NCBI GenBank assembly: GCA_000993205.1
Contig: LBVU01000003.1
Span: forward strand, 85,820 to 149,819
DNA length: 64,000 nucleotides
Source: Candidatus Woesebacteria bacterium GW2011_GWB1_39_10
GTDB taxonomy: Bacteria; Patescibacteriota; Microgenomatia; UBA8517
Direction of reading: 5' to 3'
Of this stretch, positions 5,642-59,420 are shown piece after piece. The position numbers and the translations under genes are program-made. Under the pieces are notes generated by a model. It saw nothing but the letters and a program-made list of their open reading frames with translations. It searched no databases and had not been told where the DNA came from. Each line of letters starts with the position of its first letter. The stretch's first letter is position 1.

Positions 5642-5643
5642 TG

Positions 5644-5698
5644 ATTGACAGGGTCGGACCTTGTCAAACCGCTATCTATCCTGAAAAGGTCCGACCCT
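5644..5698. promoter_or_regulatory. Nested inverted repeats in the MPE–UDG intergenic spacer
   Basis: 'TTGACAGGGTCGGACCTTGTCAA' near-palindrome. An 11-bp arm AGGGTCGGACC (5650-5660) is repeated as its complement GGTCCGACCCT (5688-5698). Function unknown. Confidence 0.35.
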
Positions 5699-5699
5699 T

Positions 5700-6173
5700 T
5701 CAGTCCTCATTAAAAAATTCTATCTCATTTGTCACTGTCTCATACACTGCAAAATTTATACCGTTAATTATGGCTCCAGGGCGCACAAATTTAGTCCAAT
5801 TTATCGTTTTTTCCTCTTTTGAGTGGTAATGCCCGCTGAAGACGATACTAAGAGACTCGATACTAGATATTAAGTTTTGGGACATTCTGTGAACTATTCC
5901 GATTTCAAGTCCGTCGACGTTTAGTTTAAGAAGATGAGGATCAAACTTTTCGGCATTAAATTTTAAATATTCTTCAATTCCATCCTCTACATCCGCATTT
6001 CCCAAAACAGAATAAAGGGGAATTCCATATGATAAAACAGTTTCAATCGACGCGACGTTGTCCCAGTCACCGCAGTGGATAACGGCACCAATCTTGGCTT
6101 TTTTGCCAATCTCCATTACGGCTTTAAGGTTGGCAATATGGCCGTGAGAATCGGAAATAATTAAAATCTTCAC
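5700..6173 (-). CDS. Metallophosphoesterase, YfcE/MJ0936 family
   Basis: 'KILIISDSHGH', 'HCGDWD', 'GNAD' and 'GHYH' motifs. Confidence 0.8.
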   Translation of the reverse strand: MKILIISDSHGHIANLKAVMEIGKKAKIGAVIHCGDWDNVASIETVLSYGIPLYSVLGNADVEDGIEEYLKFNAEKFDPHLLKLNVDGLEIGIVHRMSQNLISSIESLSIVFSGHYHSKEEKTINWTKFVRPGAIINGINFAVYETVTNEIEFFNED

Positions 6174-7034: not shown

Positions 7035-7076
7035 AAGGCGCTTTTCTTTTCAAAAAAGACTAGCGCCTTTTCTTTT
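7035..7076 (+). terminator. Rho-independent terminator after the GC-rich ORF pair
   Basis: Stem AAGGCGCT(7035-7042)/AGCGCCTT(7062-7069) followed by TTTCTTTTG. Confidence 0.7.
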
Positions 7077-24534: not shown

Positions 24535-24732
24535 TTAATTTTGAGTATTCGCTTTTACAAAGGCCTCTTCAAGTTCTTTTTCGGTTGGGGATCTGCCCTC
24601 TTTTTCCGTCTTTTTCATTAATCTGCAAACAGGGCAGTCATCAAAAAATTCATCACTGCTGGAAATTAATTGGTATTCTGAATCGACTTCTTTTTTAACC
24701 TCTTTTTTAACCTTCGATTTTGCCTTCGACAT
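24535..24732 (-). CDS. Small hypothetical protein with CPVC motif
   Basis: 65 aa. 'EFFDDCPVCRL...SPTEKELEEAF' shares the EFFDD...SPTEK string with the divergent TrpR-like neighbour. Confidence 0.4.
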   Translation of the reverse strand: MSKAKSKVKKEVKKEVDSEYQLISSSDEFFDDCPVCRLMKKTEKEGRSPTEKELEEAFVKANTQN

Positions 24733-24794
24733 TATAAATACTTTAAATCAAAACAACTGGTATATTCAACCCCACCTACACATCTTGCAATCCA

Positions 24795-24822
24795 CACTTC
24801 ATTACTATATAGTAATGAAGTG
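24795..24822. promoter_or_regulatory. 28-bp perfect palindrome CACTTCATTACTAT|ATAGTAATGAAGTG in a divergent promoter region
   Basis: Core TTACTATATAGTAA is shared with the palindromes at 25273-25306 and 48103-48130. Sits 2 nt upstream of the TrpR-like start. Confidence 0.7.
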
Positions 24823-24824
24823 AT

Positions 24825-25274
24825 ATGACAAAAGTTTCAGGACTTCCACTTAGGCCAGATGTTTGGAATAGAGTATTGGAACTATTTGTTTCTACACTTG
24901 CCAACCAAACGAATAATAAAAAATTGTCGGAGTTTTTCGATGACTTTTTCTCCCCAACAGAAAAAATAATGTTTGCCAAACGGCTTGCGGCGGCAGTTTT
25001 ACTGGCCAAAAACCATGATTACCAAAGCATCCATGAAATTCTCAGAATCAGTCCTCCCACAATAGCAAAATTGAGTTTGAAAATTAAATACGGGGGAGAA
25101 GGACTAAAACCCGTGATAGAAGATATTTTTAAAAAGGAAGCAAATCAAATAGTTTGGAAGGAAATCGAGAGTCTGTTTGATCTGCCAACTAAAGGAAATA
25201 TAAAATCTCCTGAAAGATTTAAAAGAAACCTCAAACGCGAGCAAAAAATTCGAGAAATAAAATCCGAATTTTAA
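24825..25274 (+). CDS. TrpR/YerC-YecD-like DNA-binding protein
   Basis: 'LSEFFDDFFSPTEKIMFAKRLAAAVLLAKNHDYQSIHEILRISPPTIAKLS' matches the Trp-repressor-like YerC/YecD pattern. Confidence 0.65.
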   Translation: MTKVSGLPLRPDVWNRVLELFVSTLANQTNNKKLSEFFDDFFSPTEKIMFAKRLAAAVLLAKNHDYQSIHEILRISPPTIAKLSLKIKYGGEGLKPVIEDIFKKEANQIVWKEIESLFDLPTKGNIKSPERFKRNLKREQKIREIKSEF

Positions 25275-25306
25275 ATACTTAATTACTATATAGTAATTAA
25301 GTATTT
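25273..25306. repeat. 34-bp perfect palindrome AAATACTTAATTACTAT|ATAGTAATTAAGTATTT
   Basis: Located between the convergent TrpR-like and dnaJ genes. Second copy of the TTAATTACTATATAGTAATTAA core. Confidence 0.7.
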
Positions 25307-29413: not shown

Positions 29414-29440
29414 TTAGCAGTATCTTACCTCGAGTGCTAA
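29414..29440. promoter_or_regulatory. CIRCE-like operator TTAGCAGTA-N9-GAGTGCTAA abutting the hrcA start
   Basis: Right half is a perfect GAGTGCTAA; left half matches 7/9. The N9 spacer (GAGGTAAGA on the mRNA strand) carries the only SD-like sequence for hrcA. Confidence 0.75.
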
Positions 29441-38749: not shown

Positions 38750-41218
38750 TTATCTCCAAGAATTCACCCAGTAATAGCTCCTGTCCAACCATAACGGGAT
38801 TTGAAGACCAATCCAGTGGGGATAAAAATAAATAAAGAATAATAAGCAAATAAGCAAACAGGCAAATGTTAATTTGGGATTTCTGCGGAGGACGTACCCC
38901 GTTGCAATCGCCAAAAAAGGAACCGACGGCAAATAGTGATATAAAAACATTATTCTGGGGGAGGCGGCCCAAGGCACGAAGAATATCAAATAAGCAAATA
39001 CTACAAATGCTAAATTTTTGTTTCGTTCTAAATAGGAATAGATAGCGGAAGTCGCAATCGATACAAACCCGAACCAAAAAATAAACGGGTTCCCCATTGC
39101 ATAGATTCTTGCAACCCATCCGCCTACCTCGTCAGAGGTATAAAGGTAAATCGGGCGGATCAAGAAGGGCCAGGTCCACCAGGAAGAAGAATAGGCGTGG
39201 GTCGCGACAAGTCCGGTGTGATACCACCACATTTGTTTCTGCATTCCCCACCAGATCCCAAGATCGTGGCCAGTCAAAAACATCGGGATGTAAGATGAAA
39301 GGTATATGATAAACGGAACAACTAAAAAAAACGCAAAAGTAGAAAGTCTAAATTTATTCTTCCGCCTGAGCCATAAAACAAAAAATATTGGGGTTGCCCA
39401 AATAGCGGACCACTTGGAAGAAATTGCCAAACCAAAAGAAATTGCAGACCAAAAATCCCATCGGGCCGTACGGCCCTTTGGGCCGGAGGCTTCTCCTTTC
39501 ATGAATAGATATATTGATAGCAACACAAAAAACAATAAGTAAATATCATTCATTCCTATACGGCTCATCACAAGCGCTAGTCCGTCAAGCGAGAAAATGG
39601 CTGCCGATAAAAGCCCGGTTAATTCATCTTTAAACAATAATTTTGCTAAAAGATAAACCATTAGCACCGACCCTACACCAAGAAGAACTCCCGGAATCCT
39701 GTAACCAAAAGAATTTTCGCCGAATATTTTCATTCCCATTACCATCCCCAATTTTGCCAAAGGCGGGTGCGTCCATTCATATGCAAACCCTTCCGGTGGG
39801 GTATTCCACCATTCCCAAGCTTTATTGGCGTCGGCATGCATCATTACTTTTGCCGTAAAGGCGTGATAAACTTCATCAAAATATTCGTTTTTAGGAGAAT
39901 TTAAATTATATATTCTGGTAATAAAAGCAAATGTCAAAATTCCAATTAGAATATATTTAGATTTGTTTTTAGAGAGATTAATATTAGGCAACTTGTATTC
40001 GGTAATCAATCGTTTCTTGTTTCCGATTAATCGATTAATCGGATATTTGAACCATGACCATGTTTTATTTATTTTTTTAGCGATGACGGTAAACATAAAA
40101 AAAACTGATCCAATATTTGCTACCTCTATTGCTTTGATTACAAAATCAGAAAAGATTTCTTTAAAGTTAGAGGAAATCCAAACATAGGCATAATAAAGAT
40201 TAGCAATATAAGTTAAAGAGAAACCGACGTATGGAATTAACAGAATCGGGCTTTCTATAGTTGCTATGGCAAGAGGCGCAAAAAGCGGCAAAAGATGTCT
40301 CTCGTGCATTCTGGTAAAAAAGACAAAACTTGAGGCAAAAATTAAAGCTGCCAAAAAATATTTCGTATTTTTTTGCTCTCTGTTCCTTCGTATAGCTATT
40401 ACAATTGTTATAATTAAAACCAAAAGATATCCACCAACCTGCATAAACACGTTGTCAGGTTTCCAGATCCCGATAAGCCCCCAGAAATTAAAGGCATTTA
40501 TCGAAGTATAAGGGTATTGATTTAAAGATATCCCCAACCTTTCCAAAATAAAAGATGCCAGATTTCCATGATTCCAGAAGGGGATAAATGAACCAATAAA
40601 TACAAATAAACCAACGGACAAATAAGCAAATATTTTTTGCAACTTCCATCTTTCCTTAAACACCATGAACACGATTACCGGAAATATAAACGCTGTTTGT
40701 GGTTTGACAAGAGTCCCAATCGCCAAAGAAATAGCGGATAGCAAATAATTGATAGGTAATAGATAAATCGACAAAACCGAAAAAAGTGAAGTCAAAGAAT
40801 CCACTTGACCCCATAAAGCAGAGTTGGATAAAATCGCAGGATTAAAAATATAGATTGCCGCACCAATCAAGCCCCATTTAACTCCCTTAGATTTCCTTAA
40901 AATCCTGTAAATCAAATAGCCGGTGGCAATGTCAGACAAGATGGCTGGAAGTTTATATAGAATCGTAGTCGGAATCACTCCTGCCAAATTTATTTTTCCC
41001 AAAAGCCATAGAACATAAAGGTATCCGGGTAAATAGTCGCTCCACCCATTATAGAAATTTTTAAACCCGTCACGGGTGAGATTGGCACTCCAGGCAACAA
41101 AAGTTCCCTGGTCCAAGTTCAACGTCCCAAAAAAAGATAGGATAATTCTTAAAAACAAACCAAACAAAAGCAGTAAAAAAATCTTACTGCTTGATATTCT
41201 TTTGATGAATGTGAACAT
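38750..41218 (-). CDS. Fused double GT-C glycosyltransferase (N-terminal DUF2029/GT87-like module + C-terminal PMT/GT39-like module)
   Basis: 822 aa. The second half begins 'NEYFDEVYHAFTAKVMM' (PMT loop-1 DE motif). The N-terminal half is a separate multi-TM GT-C-like module. Confidence 0.6.
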   Translation of the reverse strand: MFTFIKRISSSKIFLLLLFGLFLRIILSFFGTLNLDQGTFVAWSANLTRDGFKNFYNGWSDYLPGYLYVLWLLGKINLAGVIPTTILYKLPAILSDIATGYLIYRILRKSKGVKWGLIGAAIYIFNPAILSNSALWGQVDSLTSLFSVLSIYLLPINYLLSAISLAIGTLVKPQTAFIFPVIVFMVFKERWKLQKIFAYLSVGLFVFIGSFIPFWNHGNLASFILERLGISLNQYPYTSINAFNFWGLIGIWKPDNVFMQVGGYLLVLIITIVIAIRRNREQKNTKYFLAALIFASSFVFFTRMHERHLLPLFAPLAIATIESPILLIPYVGFSLTYIANLYYAYVWISSNFKEIFSDFVIKAIEVANIGSVFFMFTVIAKKINKTWSWFKYPINRLIGNKKRLITEYKLPNINLSKNKSKYILIGILTFAFITRIYNLNSPKNEYFDEVYHAFTAKVMMHADANKAWEWWNTPPEGFAYEWTHPPLAKLGMVMGMKIFGENSFGYRIPGVLLGVGSVLMVYLLAKLLFKDELTGLLSAAIFSLDGLALVMSRIGMNDIYLLFFVLLSIYLFMKGEASGPKGRTARWDFWSAISFGLAISSKWSAIWATPIFFVLWLRRKNKFRLSTFAFFLVVPFIIYLSSYIPMFLTGHDLGIWWGMQKQMWWYHTGLVATHAYSSSWWTWPFLIRPIYLYTSDEVGGWVARIYAMGNPFIFWFGFVSIATSAIYSYLERNKNLAFVVFAYLIFFVPWAASPRIMFLYHYLPSVPFLAIATGYVLRRNPKLTFACLLICLLFFIYFYPHWIGLQIPLWLDRSYYWVNSWR

Positions 41219-46756: not shown

Positions 46757-46784
46757 CACTACCATAATTCGAATTATGGTAGTG
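46757..46784. promoter_or_regulatory. 28-bp perfect palindrome CACTACCATAATTC|GAATTATGGTAGTG between the femAB paralogs
   Basis: 14-bp arms with no U-tract. Ends 8 nt before the next start codon. Confidence 0.6.
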
Positions 46785-46791
46785 TCCAAAC

Positions 46792-47769
46792 ATGATCGAC
46801 ATCAGACAAACTAAAAATTACGCCGATTACTTAAGACGTGAGGCTTGGGTTGTGGAAAGAGTTGACGAAACGAACTACTTTATTCGTAAATTTCCACTCA
46901 TTGGATCTGTTTTAAAACTCCAAAGGCCGGAAAAGATTAATTTTGGAATAATAGATAAACTAGCCCGAAAATATCGCGTATTTCAGATTATAATAGAACC
47001 CGATTTAGGTTCCGGTCCCGTCACCGTATTTGACCATAAATTATTATTACACAACGGCTTCAAGTTGTCAAAAAGCCCGTATTTACCGTCTAAAACCCTC
47101 CAAATTGATCTAACCCAGCCAAAAGAAAAGATTTACACAAATTTTACGAAGGAGTGTAGATATACAATTCGAAAAGCTGCCGTCGCTAAGACTATGGCCG
47201 GCAAGGGAGTAGGGGGGTTTTATAATTCGTCTTGTTCAACCCCCGCAGAAATAATAAAGTGGCGCGAAGCATGGAAAAATTCTGTTAAATTTAATAGATA
47301 TGTCCCAAGCGCCAAGCAACTTTTAAATATAAAAAAAAGTTTTCCACAAAACCACTCTCTTTTCCTTGCGTCGCACAATATTTCTGGCAGAATTACAGGT
47401 GGAGCGCTTTTCACGGTTTCTTCACACGATGTATCAAACCATATCACATATTATTGGTATGGATTTACAAATAAGGAAGGCCGCGCTTCCCTCTCCCAGT
47501 ACTCTCTCCTCTATCAAGGTATACTATGGGCTAAAAAGATGGGTTGTAAAGTTTTTGACTTCGAAGGTGTTTACGATTCAAGATTTCCTAATAAATCCTG
47601 GCTCGGTTTCACTCATTTCAAGCGCTCTTTCGGTGGACGCGAAGTTCTCTACCCCGGGGCCTATACTAAAAATGTGCTATCATTTGGGCTGTGGAACAAC
47701 AAGAGACAACGGCTAGCGACACAGAAAAAGCGAAAAGATTGGCCAGAAAAACATTCGGGAGGATCTTAA
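46792..47769 (+). CDS. FemAB-family aminoacyltransferase (paralog)
   Basis: 'CRYTIRKAAVAKT...', 'HITYYWYGFT'. Same family as the upstream gene. Confidence 0.7.
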   Translation: MIDIRQTKNYADYLRREAWVVERVDETNYFIRKFPLIGSVLKLQRPEKINFGIIDKLARKYRVFQIIIEPDLGSGPVTVFDHKLLLHNGFKLSKSPYLPSKTLQIDLTQPKEKIYTNFTKECRYTIRKAAVAKTMAGKGVGGFYNSSCSTPAEIIKWREAWKNSVKFNRYVPSAKQLLNIKKSFPQNHSLFLASHNISGRITGGALFTVSSHDVSNHITYYWYGFTNKEGRASLSQYSLLYQGILWAKKMGCKVFDFEGVYDSRFPNKSWLGFTHFKRSFGGREVLYPGAYTKNVLSFGLWNNKRQRLATQKKRKDWPEKHSGGS

Positions 47770-48102: not shown

Positions 48103-48130
48103 AACTTAATTACTATATAGTAATTAAGTT
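48103..48130 (+). terminator. Third copy of the AT-rich palindrome (AACTTAATTACTAT|ATAGTAATTAAGTT) followed by TTTTTAG
   Basis: Lies in the convergent intergenic region. A hairpin plus T-run on the + strand fits a terminator. The shared core with 24795 and 25273 suggests it is also a regulator site. Confidence 0.55.
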
Positions 48131-52372: not shown

Positions 52373-52402
52373 CCACTTAAATACTGTACAGTATTTAAGT
52401 GG
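52373..52402. promoter_or_regulatory. 30-bp perfect palindrome CCACTTAAATACTGT|ACAGTATTTAAGTGG
   Basis: Overlaps the 3' end of the MBL gene, upstream of the repeat-protein gene. No U-tract in the transcribed direction. Confidence 0.55.
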
Positions 52403-56209: not shown

Positions 56210-56547
56210 GACATAAGTATATCAGGCGTACAGAGCAAAAACTAAAGCGTAAAAATTTCTTACCCACTCTTTTGGTCACAATTTTATTGTGGCTGGCGAC
56301 TTTCGGAATTGTTTACTTCGTGGATCCCGGAACTTTTGGCGCAATACCTCTTTTTTTTATTGTAGTTTTTTTGAGTTTCCTTTTTACTTTTTCACTCTTG
56401 TTTGCCGATAGCCGGCGTGGAATGGTTGCAACCATCGCATCAACCCTATTCCTTACACTTCTCTACTTGGGTGTTGGAAATATATTAAATTTAATTTTGA
56501 TTGTTGCAATTGCAGTTAGTATCGAGATATATTTCAGCTTGAAGTGA
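56197..56547 (+). CDS. Small hydrophobic membrane protein
   Basis: 116 aa with 3 TM segments. Confidence 0.4.
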   Translation: MRVPRHKYIRRTEQKLKRKNFLPTLLVTILLWLATFGIVYFVDPGTFGAIPLFFIVVFLSFLFTFSLLFADSRRGMVATIASTLFLTLLYLGVGNILNLILIVAIAVSIEIYFSLK

Positions 56548-56873
56548 ATCCATCTCTTAAAAAACAATTGCTCCGAACTTTCTCTCAGATGATTGATGAC
56601 CTTAAGGACCCAAAAGAGATCGAAATCTTTTTGACAGACTTTTTTGACGAGGCCGAGCTTGAAAAATATGTTAAAAGAATATCTATTGCCTATTGGTTAA
56701 AAAAGGGACGGGACTCGGAAAATATCAAAAGGAACTTATTGGCTACTTCAAAAGAGATAACAGAGGCCGAAAAATCTTTAAAAAAAGGGGGGGTCAGGCT
56801 CGCCCTCAAAAAAATCGAGGCAGAAGAGTGGGCGAATGTGTGGAGTGAAAAAATCAAGAAATTTAAAAAATAG
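56544..56873 (+). CDS. TrpR/YerC-YecD-like DNA-binding protein (second paralog)
   Basis: 'IEIFLTDFFDEAELEKYVKRISIAYWLKKGRDSENIKRNLLATSKEI' follows the same pattern as 24825..25274. Confidence 0.55.
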   Translation: MNPSLKKQLLRTFSQMIDDLKDPKEIEIFLTDFFDEAELEKYVKRISIAYWLKKGRDSENIKRNLLATSKEITEAEKSLKKGGVRLALKKIEAEEWANVWSEKIKKFKK

Positions 56874-56935
56874 TAGCTTCAAATACCCTTCACGAATGAT
56901 ATTTCCAATCTAGATTGTAGTGCTCACATTATTAG

Positions 56936-56964
56936 TTGACATATTGTTATTGTTGATTAATAAT
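56936..56964 (+). promoter_or_regulatory. Sigma70-like promoter (TTGACA-N17-AATAAT) giving a near-leaderless LAGLIDADG transcript
   Basis: TTGACA at 56936-56941 and AATAAT at 56959-56964. The ATG at 56971 is 7 nt downstream of the -10 element. Confidence 0.45.
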
Positions 56965-56970
56965 TTATTA

Positions 56971-57993
56971 ATGCCTCACACCAGAAAAAATATTAATTGT
57001 AACAAGTTGAAGGATCTGTATATCAAAAGAAAACTCTCACTTTTAAAAGTTGGTAAAATTCTAGGCTATTCTTCAAGAACAATTGAGATCAAAACCAAAG
57101 AATGTAAAATACCCATTAGAAAACCAGGTTCGATCCCTCCAAAGATAAGCGATAAAACATTAAAACATTTATATATTCAAAAAAAAATGTCTAGCAGAAA
57201 AATAGCAAAGATATATAAATGTGCCTATTCATATATTGACACTCGAATAAAATCAATGAATATCCCCAGAAGGAATCTTTCTATTGCTCATATTGTCTCG
57301 AAAAGAATTAACTTTTCTGGTGACGTAAATGAAAAAGCATATCTAATTGGTTTTAGAATTGGAGATCTAAGAGTTAGAAAGATGTACAAAAATAGCGAGT
57401 CTATTTTAGTTGACTGCGGTTCAACCAAGCTAGAACAAATAAGACTAATAAAAAGATTGTTTGAAAAATACGGAAGAATCTGGATTAGCAGACCTAAAAC
57501 TAATGGGAAAACTCAAATTGAGATTGGCGTCAATGAATCGTTTTCTTTTTTACTTCCTAAATACCAAATATTCCCTCATTGGACAATGAAAATGAAAAAA
57601 ACATTCTTGAACATTCTTGCTGGCTTTGTCGATGCTGAGGGAAGCTTTTTCATATCTAACAACAAAAAATCTGCTACTTTTTCACTCGGTAATTATAACA
57701 AATCGATTCTCGAACAAACAAAACAAAAGCTATATGGATACAATTTTCACGCAAACCTATTTCAAGGTGTTAAAAAAGGATATACAGGAAAAGACGGTTA
57801 TTCACACAGACAGGATTATTGGATATTGTCTATTTCAAGGAAAAAAGATTTACAATTATTTATCGAAACAATATCTTCTTATTTGAAACACAAGGACAGA
57901 ATAAAACAAACACAAAAAGTACTGGAAAATATAGAAATGAGAAACAAAAAACATGGCTTTATAGGCATGCAACGTGATAAACTTCAACCATGA
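56971..57993 (+). CDS. Free-standing LAGLIDADG homing endonuclease (two-motif, single-chain) with duplicated N-terminal HTH-like segments
   Basis: 'KAYLIGFRIGDLRVRK' and 'FLNILAGFVDAEGSFFIS' LAGLIDADG motifs. Stop overlaps the metG ATG (ATGA). The ORF extension to 56920 runs through its own promoter and is likely spurious. Confidence 0.8.
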   Translation: MPHTRKNINCNKLKDLYIKRKLSLLKVGKILGYSSRTIEIKTKECKIPIRKPGSIPPKISDKTLKHLYIQKKMSSRKIAKIYKCAYSYIDTRIKSMNIPRRNLSIAHIVSKRINFSGDVNEKAYLIGFRIGDLRVRKMYKNSESILVDCGSTKLEQIRLIKRLFEKYGRIWISRPKTNGKTQIEIGVNESFSFLLPKYQIFPHWTMKMKKTFLNILAGFVDAEGSFFISNNKKSATFSLGNYNKSILEQTKQKLYGYNFHANLFQGVKKGYTGKDGYSHRQDYWILSISRKKDLQLFIETISSYLKHKDRIKQTQKVLENIEMRNKKHGFIGMQRDKLQP

Positions 57994-59420
57994 TTGATAA
58001 AAAGTCTGTTTATATAACAACAACGCTCCCATATGTGAACTCTGACCCACATCTGGGATTTGCGCTGGAAATAACGCAAGCCGATACTGTTGCCAGATTT
58101 AAAAGGCAAGAAGGATTTGATGTCTTTTTTAATTTTGGCACCGACGAACATGGTTTAAAAATATACCAAAAAGCTCTCGAACAAGGAAAAGAAACTCAAA
58201 CATACGTTGATGAGTATGCTGAAAAATTTGATGCCCTTAAGAAAGCTTTAAACTTAAGCTATAACAATTTTATAAGAACCACAGACCCCCACCACATAAT
58301 GGCGGCTCGGGGGTTTTGGGAAAGATGTGATAAAAATGGAGATATTTACAAGAAAAATTATAAACAAAAATATTGTGTAGGTTGCGAGCTAGAGAAAACA
58401 GATTCTGAACTTATTGAAAACAAGTGTCCTCTGCATCCGAATCGGGATATAGAAATTATTGAAGAAGAAAACTACTTTTTTAAATTTAGTAAATATCAAC
58501 AGCCACTCCTAGAATTCTACAAAAAAAATCCAGATTTTGTAGTTCCAGATGGGAAATTTAGTGAGATAAGATCATTTGTTGAAGGTGGCCTTCAAGATTT
58601 TTCCATTTCTAGAATTAAGAACAAAATGCCTTGGGGAATTCCTGTTCCAAACGACCCAGAACATGTCATGTTCGTGTGGTTCGATGCTTTAGTAAATTAT
58701 GTATCTGCAATCGGATGGCCCGATGACATGAAGAAGTTTGATAAGTGGTGGCCCGTGGTTCAGTTTGCCGGAAAAGACAATTTAAGACAGCAAACTGCTA
58801 CATGGCAAGCAATGCTCATGAGCGCAGGAATTTCGAATTCAAAACAAATTTTTATACACGGATTTATTACAGTAAATGGTCAAAAAATTAGCAAAAGCCT
58901 AGGAAACACGATCAATCCAATAGATGTTGTAAAAAAATATGGGACTGACCCTGTTCGATACTATTTATTGTCTAAAATAAATCCATATGACGATTCAGAT
59001 TTTACTTTTGAAAAATTTGAAGATGTTTATAATGGTGACCTGGCAAACGGACTTGGAAATTTGGTTTCCAGATGCGCTAAGCTTTGCGAGAATTCCAGTT
59101 TCGATTTCCCGTATGATATATCGATATATCATATTCTTGATAAAAAAATTGAGGTATCTCTAAATGATTATAGATTTGACGAGGCGCTGAAAATAGTTTG
59201 GACCAAAGTCGCTGAAACAGATAAATATATCAACGAAAACGAACCATGGAAGTTGGAGGGAGACAAACTCAAGGGGGTCCTTAGCAGCTCAGTTGAATCC
59301 ATAAGACATATTGCATATAACTTGAAGTCATTCCTCCCTGAAACTGCAGAAAAAATTGAAGCTCAATTTAAGGGCCCAAAAATAAAATCCGACAGATCGT
59401 TATTCCCCCGTTTGCCATAG
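57990..59420 (+). CDS. metG: Methionyl-tRNA synthetase (short form) with an HLGF variant of the HIGH motif
   Basis: 'YITTTLPYVNSDPHLGFALE', 'KISKSLGN' (KMSKS), 'CVGCELE...CPLH' knuckle. Confidence 0.85.
   Translation: MIDKKSVYITTTLPYVNSDPHLGFALEITQADTVARFKRQEGFDVFFNFGTDEHGLKIYQKALEQGKETQTYVDEYAEKFDALKKALNLSYNNFIRTTDPHHIMAARGFWERCDKNGDIYKKNYKQKYCVGCELEKTDSELIENKCPLHPNRDIEIIEEENYFFKFSKYQQPLLEFYKKNPDFVVPDGKFSEIRSFVEGGLQDFSISRIKNKMPWGIPVPNDPEHVMFVWFDALVNYVSAIGWPDDMKKFDKWWPVVQFAGKDNLRQQTATWQAMLMSAGISNSKQIFIHGFITVNGQKISKSLGNTINPIDVVKKYGTDPVRYYLLSKINPYDDSDFTFEKFEDVYNGDLANGLGNLVSRCAKLCENSSFDFPYDISIYHILDKKIEVSLNDYRFDEALKIVWTKVAETDKYINENEPWKLEGDKLKGVLSSSVESIRHIAYNLKSFLPETAEKIEAQFKGPKIKSDRSLFPRLP

Follow-up and report, generated by a model that had tools for sequence, protein, structure and literature searches.

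The stretch of DNA analysed here, 64,000 nt from contig LBVU01000003.1 of Candidatus Woesebacteria bacterium GW2011_GWB1_39_10 (hereafter the window, whose positions serve as coordinates), contains a gene for a 149-aa protein of the TrpR family that is bracketed by two copies of a long palindrome. Two further copies lie elsewhere in the window. The genes and sites concerned are the following:

24795-24822, no strand: palindrome 1, the upstream bracket site, 28 bp, perfect, core 24796-24821 ACTTCATTACTATATAGTAATGAAGT; predicted operator over two divergent promoters
24825..25274, plus strand: TrpR-family protein, YerC/HisR branch, 149 aa, with a C-terminal extension of about 45 aa (Pfam, profile and AlphaFold2 (AF2) evidence)
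25273-25306, no strand: palindrome 2, the downstream bracket site, 34 bp, perfect, core 25277-25302; spacer convergent with dnaJ
48103-48130, no strand: palindrome 3, a solo site, 28 bp, perfect, core 48104-48129; convergent spacer
52373-52402, no strand: palindrome 4, a solo site, core 52375-52400 ACTTAAATACTGTACAGTATTTAAGT; convergent spacer
24535..24732, minus strand: 65-aa open reading frame (ORF), divergent from the regulator and heading a run of minus-strand ORFs; candidate co-regulated gene

Copy 1 (arms CACTTCATTACTAT and ATAGTAATGAAGTG) lies between the 65-aa ORF, on the minus strand, and the TrpR-like gene, on the plus strand, with 2 nt between its end and the regulator ATG at 24825. 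Copy 2 (arms AAATACTTAATTACTAT and ATAGTAATTAAGTATTT) overlaps the regulator TAA and adjoins the 3' end of the hrcA-grpE-dnaK-dnaJ operon, with the dnaJ stop 19 nt away. Copy 3 (arms AACTTAATTACTAT and ATAGTAATTAAGTT) is found 2 nt past the stop of a UvrD/PD-(D/E)XK helicase-nuclease gene and is followed by TTTTT, and copy 4, whose arms (CCACTTAAATACTGT and ACAGTATTTAAGTGG) each have two changes, symmetric with each other, overlaps a metallo-beta-lactamase-fold gene at its stop codon. The first-pass annotation had reported perfect palindromes of 28, 34 and 28 bp at 24795, 25273 and 48103, and both positions and gene contexts were confirmed. All three copies are present, but the fourth family member at 52373-52402 had been overlooked. 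Likewise, the core said to be shared, TTAATTACTATATAGTAATTAA, is found in copies 2 and 3 but not in copy 1, which reads TCATTACTATATAGTAATGA: copy 1 shares the 16-mer ATTACTATATAGTAAT plus the outer ACTT/AAGT, and differs from TTAATTACTATATAGTAATTAA by a symmetric A>C / T>G change.

The window palindromes are real and far above chance expectation. Five perfect zero-spacer palindromes of at least 28 bp were found where 0.01 were expected, and the 16-mer ATTACTATATAGTAAT has three exact occurrences, and four matches when up to three mismatches are allowed (0.40 expected). All four copies fit the pattern ACTTnAnTACTnTAnAGTAnTnAAGT with 0 mismatches at its 20 fixed positions; no sequence of the window matches it with 1-4 mismatches, so that the motif is all-or-none there.

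Within the TrpR family, the 149-aa protein falls in the YerC/HisR branch. It matches Pfam PF01371 (Trp_repressor) over residues 18-99 with 39.2 bits for a cutoff of 27 (E 7.6e-10), and NCBIfam TIGR02531 (YerC/YecD) with 28.9 bits, under the equivalog cutoff of 42.2; its other Pfam matches are limited to a weak HTH_23. A profile of the family, compared with the PDB, retrieved 3FRW (1.8e-18), 3G1C (1.1e-16) and 3KOR (9.7e-16), E. coli TrpR scoring 0.06. The AF2 model has a predicted local distance difference test (pLDDT) score of 85-91 over residues 11-100, and in Foldseek it matched 3FRW, 3KOR and 3G1C with target-normalised TM-scores of 0.70-0.80, and E. coli TrpR with about 0.7. The model has low confidence for residues 110-149, an additional tail in which a single helix is predicted. 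The Pfam search gave no nuclease or transposase domain, and no catalytic-type invariant residues are seen in the homologues beyond the helix-turn-helix (HTH) region. The nearest database protein, 99% identical, is from Candidatus Woesebacteria GW2011_GWA2_40_7.

The 65-aa ORF has a homologue in the equivalent position in a relative genome, CAZBTH01 (locus L043; L-numbers denote loci fetched around motif matches or homologues), and no Pfam or NCBIfam match. It had been suspected of being a partial duplication of the regulator; the two share the EFFDD and SPTEK strings, but BLASTP gives them no significant similarity (E 0.059) and the idea was dropped.

The pattern ACTTnAnTACTnTAnAGTAnTnAAGT was then used to scan the GTDB set of one genome per species (596 Gb), in which about 0.5 chance matches are expected at even base composition. 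We found 69 sites in 62 loci, with strict matches in about 30 assemblies. The titles that name a lineage are Woese-, Levy-, Gottesman-, Davies-, Doudna-, Berkel-, Sung-, Moran- and Niyogibacteria and Saccharibacteria, all belonging to the Candidate Phyla Radiation (CPR) bar one set, Third Party Annotation metagenome-assembled genomes (MAGs) titled 'Gammaproteobacteria'. Two of these carry genes 73-89% identical to the window's, and the titles are likely mislabelled. A motif so widespread among CPR lineages is not a repeat of a single species: in lineages, as named by the record titles, whose proteins share only 21-32% identity with that of the window, the 20 fixed positions carry identical bases. 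Nor does every CPR genome have it. Strict sites number four in the 64-kb window and 13 in CAZBTH01. Among 2.9 million viral contigs no match was found, and a phage-borne element was rejected on this ground. In a literature search, we found no publication with this motif or linking a TrpR-family protein to CPR regulation.

The bracketing of the regulator gene recurs in these genomes. Homologues of the 149-aa protein directly beside a strict site amount to 18 ORFs, two of which are contig-end fragments of one CAZBTH01 gene. When the second bracket site was sought in a relaxed scan allowing 1-4 mismatches, about 14 lineages proved to be bracketed (the window, L002, L004, L010, L016, L020, L033, L034, L037, L042, L046, L054, L059 and L061), with one site 0-37 nt 5' of the start and the other at or just past the stop. 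Counted by assembly accession, bracketing is seen in about 17 lineages, that is, in every examined lineage where a homologue adjoins a site; they include MAGs titled Woese-, Doudna-, Sung- and Saccharibacteria, plus untyped MAGs. More distant homologues, at 46-65% identity (L086/87, L088/89, L090), are bracketed by drifted, imperfect palindromes in which an inner TAAT replaces TACT. Co-variation of the recognition helix with the drifted motifs was rejected, SPPTIAK being the same in these homologues; the preceding helix alone differs (HE to RY), which is no more than suggestive.

The downstream site persists before varied neighbours, dnaJ in the window and scpB in L010, L016 and L034; copy 2 is identical over 34 bp in CAZBTH01, where another gene lies downstream. 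In L010 (1480-3525) the order is scpA, site, gene, site, scpB, with related settings in L016 (233-1324) and L034 (6620-7734). Other neighbours of the regulator are gyrB (L026), gyrA (L086) and nusA (L002, L090). Two bracketed regulator genes are found in CAZBTH01. In the same genome (L018 2648-3258, CAZBTH010000004.1), a 166-aa gene with a site on either side occupies the very place of the single copy 3 of the window; its product is not a TrpR relative and has no Pfam match, and the right-hand site of this cassette (3233) is a hybrid of two arm types. An Xer-like tyrosine recombinase is encoded upstream of the regulator, one called gene away in L086 (8410-9360) and L087 (6494-7444) and two in L088 (7442-8488), in conserved synteny with yebC (Woesebacteria relatives).

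YerC of B. subtilis is HisR, the histidine repressor, and the HisR box, cacTTTAnnnnnnTAAAgtg, is a 20-bp palindrome of the form cacTTTA-N6-TAAAgtg; purified HisR bound one predicted site in vitro, 5' of the Ruminococcus gnavus his operon, with histidine required, and hisR often has its own site upstream (PMC9413887). Positions 0-19 of the CPR site read cACTTnA-N6-TAnAGTa, and positions 8-27 are equal by symmetry; the 26-mer thus consists of two HisR-type boxes, ACTTnA-N6-TAnAGT, with an 8-bp offset, at site positions 1-18 and 9-26. A natural variant, ACTTTAATACTTTAAAGTATTAAAGT (L026, L050, L055), contains two perfect ACTTTA-N6-TAAAGT boxes 8 bp apart, and position 5/15 of the HisR box is T/A in some site variants only. 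Besides the four double sites, no isolated single HisR-type box was found in the window, and a hidden regulon of single boxes was rejected there. The core had earlier been likened to the E. coli trp operator. HisR-type structures and the box match place this comparison in the right family, but the HisR box (PMC9413887) fits better.

Two promoter-like sites overlap palindrome 1:

24785..24813, plus strand: promoter-like site for the regulator, TTGCAA (24785-24790), 17-nt spacer, TATAGT (24808-24813), from a consensus scan
24804..24831, minus strand: divergent promoter-like site toward the 65-aa ORF, TTGTCA (24831-24826), 16-nt spacer, TATAGT (24809-24804), 10/12 matches

The two -10 hexamers mirror each other in the centre of the palindrome. 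The regulator ATG lies 11 nt past the -10 element and has no Shine-Dalgarno sequence. Compared with CAZBTH01, CTTGCAA and the site are the only conserved parts of the intergenic DNA, the rest having diverged, and TTGCAA or TTGAAT is found in the equivalent place in L054, L059, L002 and L043.

Taken with the bracketing in about 17 lineages, the HisR-box match and the -10 overlap indicate that the adjacent TrpR-like protein very probably binds to the palindromes, the upstream site being autoregulatory, as the first-pass annotation had proposed. This operator and autoregulation reading is well supported by the comparative evidence together with the published operator of the family. In the fuller form of this reading, which we regard as likely, the regulator would be a CPR-specific representative of the YerC/HisR branch, and the palindromes, both those that flank its gene and the other copies, would be composite operators that it binds with high affinity. 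The two overlapping HisR-type boxes of each 26-bp site would accommodate two adjacent dimers, in the way that E. coli TrpR dimers occupy their operator next to each other. The upstream site extends over the putative promoter of the regulator itself (TTGCAA-N17-TATAGT, nearly leaderless), from its spacer through the -10 element to the start region, and also over the mirror-image divergent -10, and the bound protein would occlude both divergent promoters, resulting in autorepression. For the downstream site, the evidence being weaker, cooperation with the upstream site by looping, or insulation from neighbouring transcription, would be the most likely function. The two distant copies, which lie at gene ends, would be further binding sites maintained by selection. 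More speculatively, the likeliest function of such copies, at gene ends and within operons, would be that of a protein roadblock or insulator, comparable to the intragenic operators of PurR, CcpA and CodY, or alternatively an architectural one, rather than promoter repression.

A locus of a Saccharibacteria contig (RGIG9952; L045) speaks for this operator reading, in that its ACTTTA arrays are site-like and lie about 85 bp upstream of strong repeated promoters. The locus (457-2600) consists of four repeated modules of about 190 bp between small ORFs. Each has an array of ACTTTA/TAAAGT half-sites, then TTGACGTCAGAC, and, about 85 bp downstream of the array, a near-consensus promoter TTGACT-N17-TATAAT with a ribosome-binding site. 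It looks like the regulatory region of a mobile element that employs the same half-site.

Several observations weigh against the operator reading. Solo sites (sites by the regulator gene excluded, with crude calls of ORFs of at least 90 aa) are found in 26 tandem, 6 convergent and 0 divergent spacers, and 10 are within ORFs, the opposite of what promoter operators would show; the spacers available to them were 313 tandem, 64 convergent and 62 divergent. Fourteen lie within 11 nt of a stop codon for 9.0 expected (p 0.0065), and no enrichment was seen near starts. In the window itself, three of the four sites are in spacers between convergent genes. Neighbours are mixed (Mur ligases, NUDIX, glycosyltransferases, ScpB, ABC ATPases, GatA, uracil-DNA glycosylase), and there is no coherent regulon beyond the regulator's own gene: a conserved regulon was sought among 81 neighbours and rejected, BLAST clustering and Pfam yielding mixed housekeeping genes. 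No his gene is found near the window sites or in the Pfam matches of the 81 other neighbours (the 25 commonest of 90 families), two class-II aminoacyl-tRNA synthetases and two ABC ATPases being the only remotely his-related matches. In 240 kb around helicase homologues of distant Woesebacteria (54-69% identity), there is no site and almost no long palindrome, so that most of any 'regulon' would be lineage-specific. Finally, mirror positions covary: positions 5/22 pair in 71 of 73 sites for 29 expected, and positions 12/15 in 62 of 73 for 24 expected. A symmetric dimer-binding site does not, by itself, predict mirror-position covariation within one site.

Covariation is also seen at positions 0/27 and -1/28, and it holds within a single genome (CAZBTH01). 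It would speak for RNA hairpins, and the palindromes might then be bidirectional intrinsic terminators, or 3' or intercistronic mRNA stabilisers, for which the protein would be irrelevant. Given their composition, the hairpins do have a stable fold (-12 to -17 kcal/mol, z-scores -2.3 to -5.1), three window copies are at 3' ends, and copy 3 is followed by TTTTT, from which it had been suggested that at least this copy could double as a terminator. The terminator scan was negative, however, as were the tests for a T-run and for G-U pairs. In the pattern scan, 0 sites satisfy terminator criteria; no T enrichment is seen (the 10 nt that follow 25 oriented stop-adjacent sites contain 3.0 T on average); and on the sense strand G-U and A-C combinations number 5 and 6, i.e. 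no bias in a test of low power. An intrinsic terminator was rejected on these three grounds. Moreover, the loop-closing and central positions are self-complementary too, the sequence as well as the pairing is kept across lineages, copy 1 lies within a promoter, mostly upstream of the likely start site, and Rfam has no match anywhere in the window, which led us to reject a known RNA family. Conventional-looking GC-rich terminator stems are present elsewhere in the window, at 5643-5705 and 7035-7069, outside the scan of the terminator tool. These are G+C-rich imperfect inverted repeats of ordinary terminator look at gene ends, and the genome may therefore employ ordinary hairpin terminators elsewhere. 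We consider a role as RNA hairpins very unlikely.

As RNA-level explanations fare badly, the symmetry is to be regarded as a property of the DNA. Replication is known to cause mutations by hairpin-templated correction of quasi-palindromes, and we infer that such correction, acting atop selection for binding, best explains the near-perfect symmetry. Through it, a change tolerated in one arm would be transferred to the opposite arm, and a palindrome could be lengthened into its flanks. Its efficiency would be lowest beside the centre, and it is at positions 12/15 that the majority of asymmetric sites differ. The two orthologous MurD sites are both palindromes of 36 bp, although their flanks are not the same (GCGAT...ATCGC and CGAAT...ATTCG). 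That the fixed bases are under selection fits protein binding. Between the window and CAZBTH01, the four orthologous sites show 0 changes at 80 fixed positions; the flank of site 3, the one flanking region compared, is about 81% identical and spacers are largely unalignable, and palindrome 4 is identical at 26 of 26 positions while its left flank is unalignable. This conservation of solo sites between relatives argues for their use.

The placement of solo sites leads to another explanation, that the palindrome is an element of the repetitive extragenic palindromic (REP) or Rickettsia palindromic element (RPE) kind, self-propagating or passively copied, which would have reached gene ends, spacers between cistrons and tolerant loops of proteins, the regulator playing the part of a REP-associated tyrosine transposase (RAYT) and regulation being secondary. 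The distribution is REP-like, with no divergent spacer, many tandem and convergent ones, and stop-adjacent sites; it is equally expected if copies landing in promoters are purged for silencing genes. Some sites split conserved operons (gatC|gatA, murC/B|murD), and others are in frame within genes, where they encode YLNTVQYLS, in MurD (L016, L044), PMT-type glycosyltransferases (L040, L041, L047) and a Sua5-like protein (L029). Such a copy is present in 3-4 of 60 MurD homologues, in one hypervariable loop, and absent from the closest homologue (71% identity). The expansion is lineage-specific (four sites per 64 kb in the window, 13 strict ones in CAZBTH01, 0 in the 240 kb of other Woesebacteria); CAZBTH01 has two copies of the bracketed gene, L010 has a bracketed unit between scpA and scpB, and relatives differ by site-gene-site versus a single site. 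On the other hand, the protein is of an HTH repressor family devoid of nuclease or transposase domain, copies number tens per genome and not hundreds, the 20 fixed positions are common to CPR lineages with proteins 21-32% identical to the window's, and orthologous solo sites are unchanged between relatives, which points to function rather than drift. Nor could a target-site duplication be defined, and viral contigs lack the motif. The first-pass annotation had held that dozens of scattered copies unrelated to promoters would indicate a generic REP-like repeat; the extra copies of related genomes do lie off promoters, but they are neither as numerous nor as species-specific as REP sequences. 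We consider the REP-like explanation unlikely.

The in-frame sites listed are L016 6129, L044 1859, L040 5114, L041 713, L047 4102, L029 524, L005 7962 and L011 899, in MurD, PMT-type glycosyltransferases, a Sua5-like protein and a membrane protein, with the peptides YLNTVQYLS or TSILYSIEV; the six in-frame copies with a GTAC/GTAA centre all use the same one of two open frames. Clean insertion boundaries were sought in homologues of the L041 and L047 proteins and rejected, the loops being too variable, and one 'absent' site among them proved to be there in decayed form, its outer arms intact but its centre replaced. For sites 3 and 4, gain or loss was examined in 23 metagenomic relatives; since these have lost synteny and have no sites, insertion boundaries are undefinable.

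The cassette-like arrangements raise a further possibility, that the palindromes are recombination or cassette boundary sites of the Xer/pdif or attC type, between which genes would enter and leave. The enzyme would be a host tyrosine recombinase, assisted by the TrpR-like protein as an accessory DNA-binding factor. In its favour are the 166-aa gene between two sites of CAZBTH01 in place of the single site of the window, the constant site-gene-site unit of the regulator in neighbourhoods as varied as dnaJ, scpA/scpB, gyrA/gyrB and nusA, the hybrid site with differing arm types (L018 3233), the Xer-like integrase one or two called genes upstream in L086-L088, and an 11-4/6-11 layout like that of dif. 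Yet this non-regulator cassette is the only one found, and its arm types misfit a simple integration product of the window's site. Perfect palindromes confer no directionality, the central TA is invariant and not free, no recombinase is consistently adjacent (the window genes were screened for recombinases in part), and multiple identical sites per chromosome would invite deletions. Such a role appears most improbable.

A further reading would make the HisR-like protein a CPR-wide, possibly metabolite-gated, site-specific 'clamp' rather than a pathway repressor, with about 15-30 perfectly conserved sites per genome. We hold this to be conceivable, if rather doubtful. Whether within a transcription unit, by a stop codon or at either end of the regulator gene, the sites would act as roadblocks, insulators or chromosome anchors (one lineage has the gene between scpA and scpB), and new sites would arise from palindrome copying, including in frame in essential genes.

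The comparison with known systems is closest for HisR (YerC), which is of the same Pfam family, the nearest solved structures being HisR-type (3G1C, 3FRW, 3KOR). The CPR half-sites cACTTnA / TAnAGT match 11 of the 14 specified positions of the HisR box invariably, and 13 of 14 in some variants. However, the CPR regulator falls under the TIGR02531 cutoff and has 149 aa, with its low-confidence C-terminal extension, instead of about 100; its operator is doubled into a perfect palindrome of 26-28 bp, with sites at both gene ends; and no his genes or histidine transporters adjoin the sites. E. coli TrpR has the same fold (Foldseek TM-score of about 0.7, target-normalised) and half-sites containing ACT/AGT, and it autoregulates via an operator over its own promoter, as the CPR protein would. 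Side-by-side E. coli TrpR dimers are offset by 8 bp. Tandem binding of TrpR, with dimers side by side, is documented by the title of PDB entry 1TRR. Similarity to the CPR protein is nevertheless marginal (E 0.06), the CPR ACT...AGT spacings are 12 and 4 bp instead of 8 bp, and no trp or aro genes are involved at CPR sites.

In REP/RAYT systems and Rickettsia palindromic elements, a palindrome flanks a single-copy gene and is dispersed in the genome. Dispersed CPR copies resemble them in avoiding divergent spacers and sitting at gene ends, some of them in frame within genes, but the flanked gene codes for a protein of an HTH repressor family and not for a Y1 HUH (IS200-like) transposase, and the copies are tens instead of hundreds, their sequence being kept across the whole radiation and not species-specific. 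Roadblock operators within transcription units are known for PurR (at purB and purR), CcpA and CodY, and architectural systems in which a gene lies beside its own site include ParB/parS, Tus/TerB and RTP/Ter, RTP Ter sites taking two dimers. The CPR sites are likewise palindromic and placed regardless of promoters, some of them in coding sequence, with the gene adjoining its own sites. In contrast, none of these proteins is of the TrpR family, and the perfect symmetry of the CPR site argues against a polar fork trap. What is new, with respect to all of these, is a clade of HisR-like CPR proteins whose operator is a doubled palindrome, whose gene invariably has a site at each end, and whose extra sites are lineage-specific and placed as REPs are.

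Transcription control in CPR bacteria (Patescibacteria) is almost unexplored, and a regulator-operator pair kept in many CPR lineages offers a concrete and testable case. Its layout is unusual, in that the HisR-type box is doubled and the gene has its own sites on both sides, and the equally conserved copies at gene ends and within genes are a puzzle. If these were roadblocks, insulators or anchors, the classic fold of amino-acid repressors would have acquired a new function in the most strongly reduced genomes of bacteria. Another potential application of the operator is as a tool for the few genetically tractable Saccharibacteria.

The fifth perfect palindrome of the window, 28 bp at 46757-46784, has another sequence (arms CACTACCATAATTC and GAATTATGGTAGTG) and lies between two co-directional ORFs, 7 nt 5' of the ATG of the ORF at 46792. 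It has CACT...AGTG ends as in the main family, and an inner ATAAT like the drifted bracket sites of L086 and L088; no copy of this type was found in any fetched locus. It may be the site of a paralogous regulator encoded beyond the window. Two perfect 22-bp palindromes, 40022-40043 (TCCGATTAATCGATTAATCGGA) and 59112-59133 (TATGATATATCGATATATCATA), are found within long ORFs and are unrelated in sequence to the main family.

The hrcA-grpE-dnaK-dnaJ operon, which hrcA heads on the minus strand, has a CIRCE-like element (controlling inverted repeat of chaperone expression) directly 5' of hrcA, at 29414-29440 (TTAGCAGTATCTTACCTCGAGTGCTAA, 2 mismatches). On account of dnaJ, the palindrome was also considered as a CIRCE/HrcA heat-shock operator (TTAGCACTC-N9-GAGTGCTAA, found upstream of hrcA/groES), and this was rejected: the real CIRCE is at 29414-29440, and the palindrome is at the 3' end of the operon with a different sequence.

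Finally, the window encodes a second TrpR-family protein, of 109 aa, at 56544-56873 on the plus strand (PF01371 E 1.4e-6); its gene has an orthologue in CAZBTH01 (L038 4993-5322) and no flanking palindromes. The next ORF, 56920-57993 on the plus strand, carries LAGLIDADG endonuclease domains.

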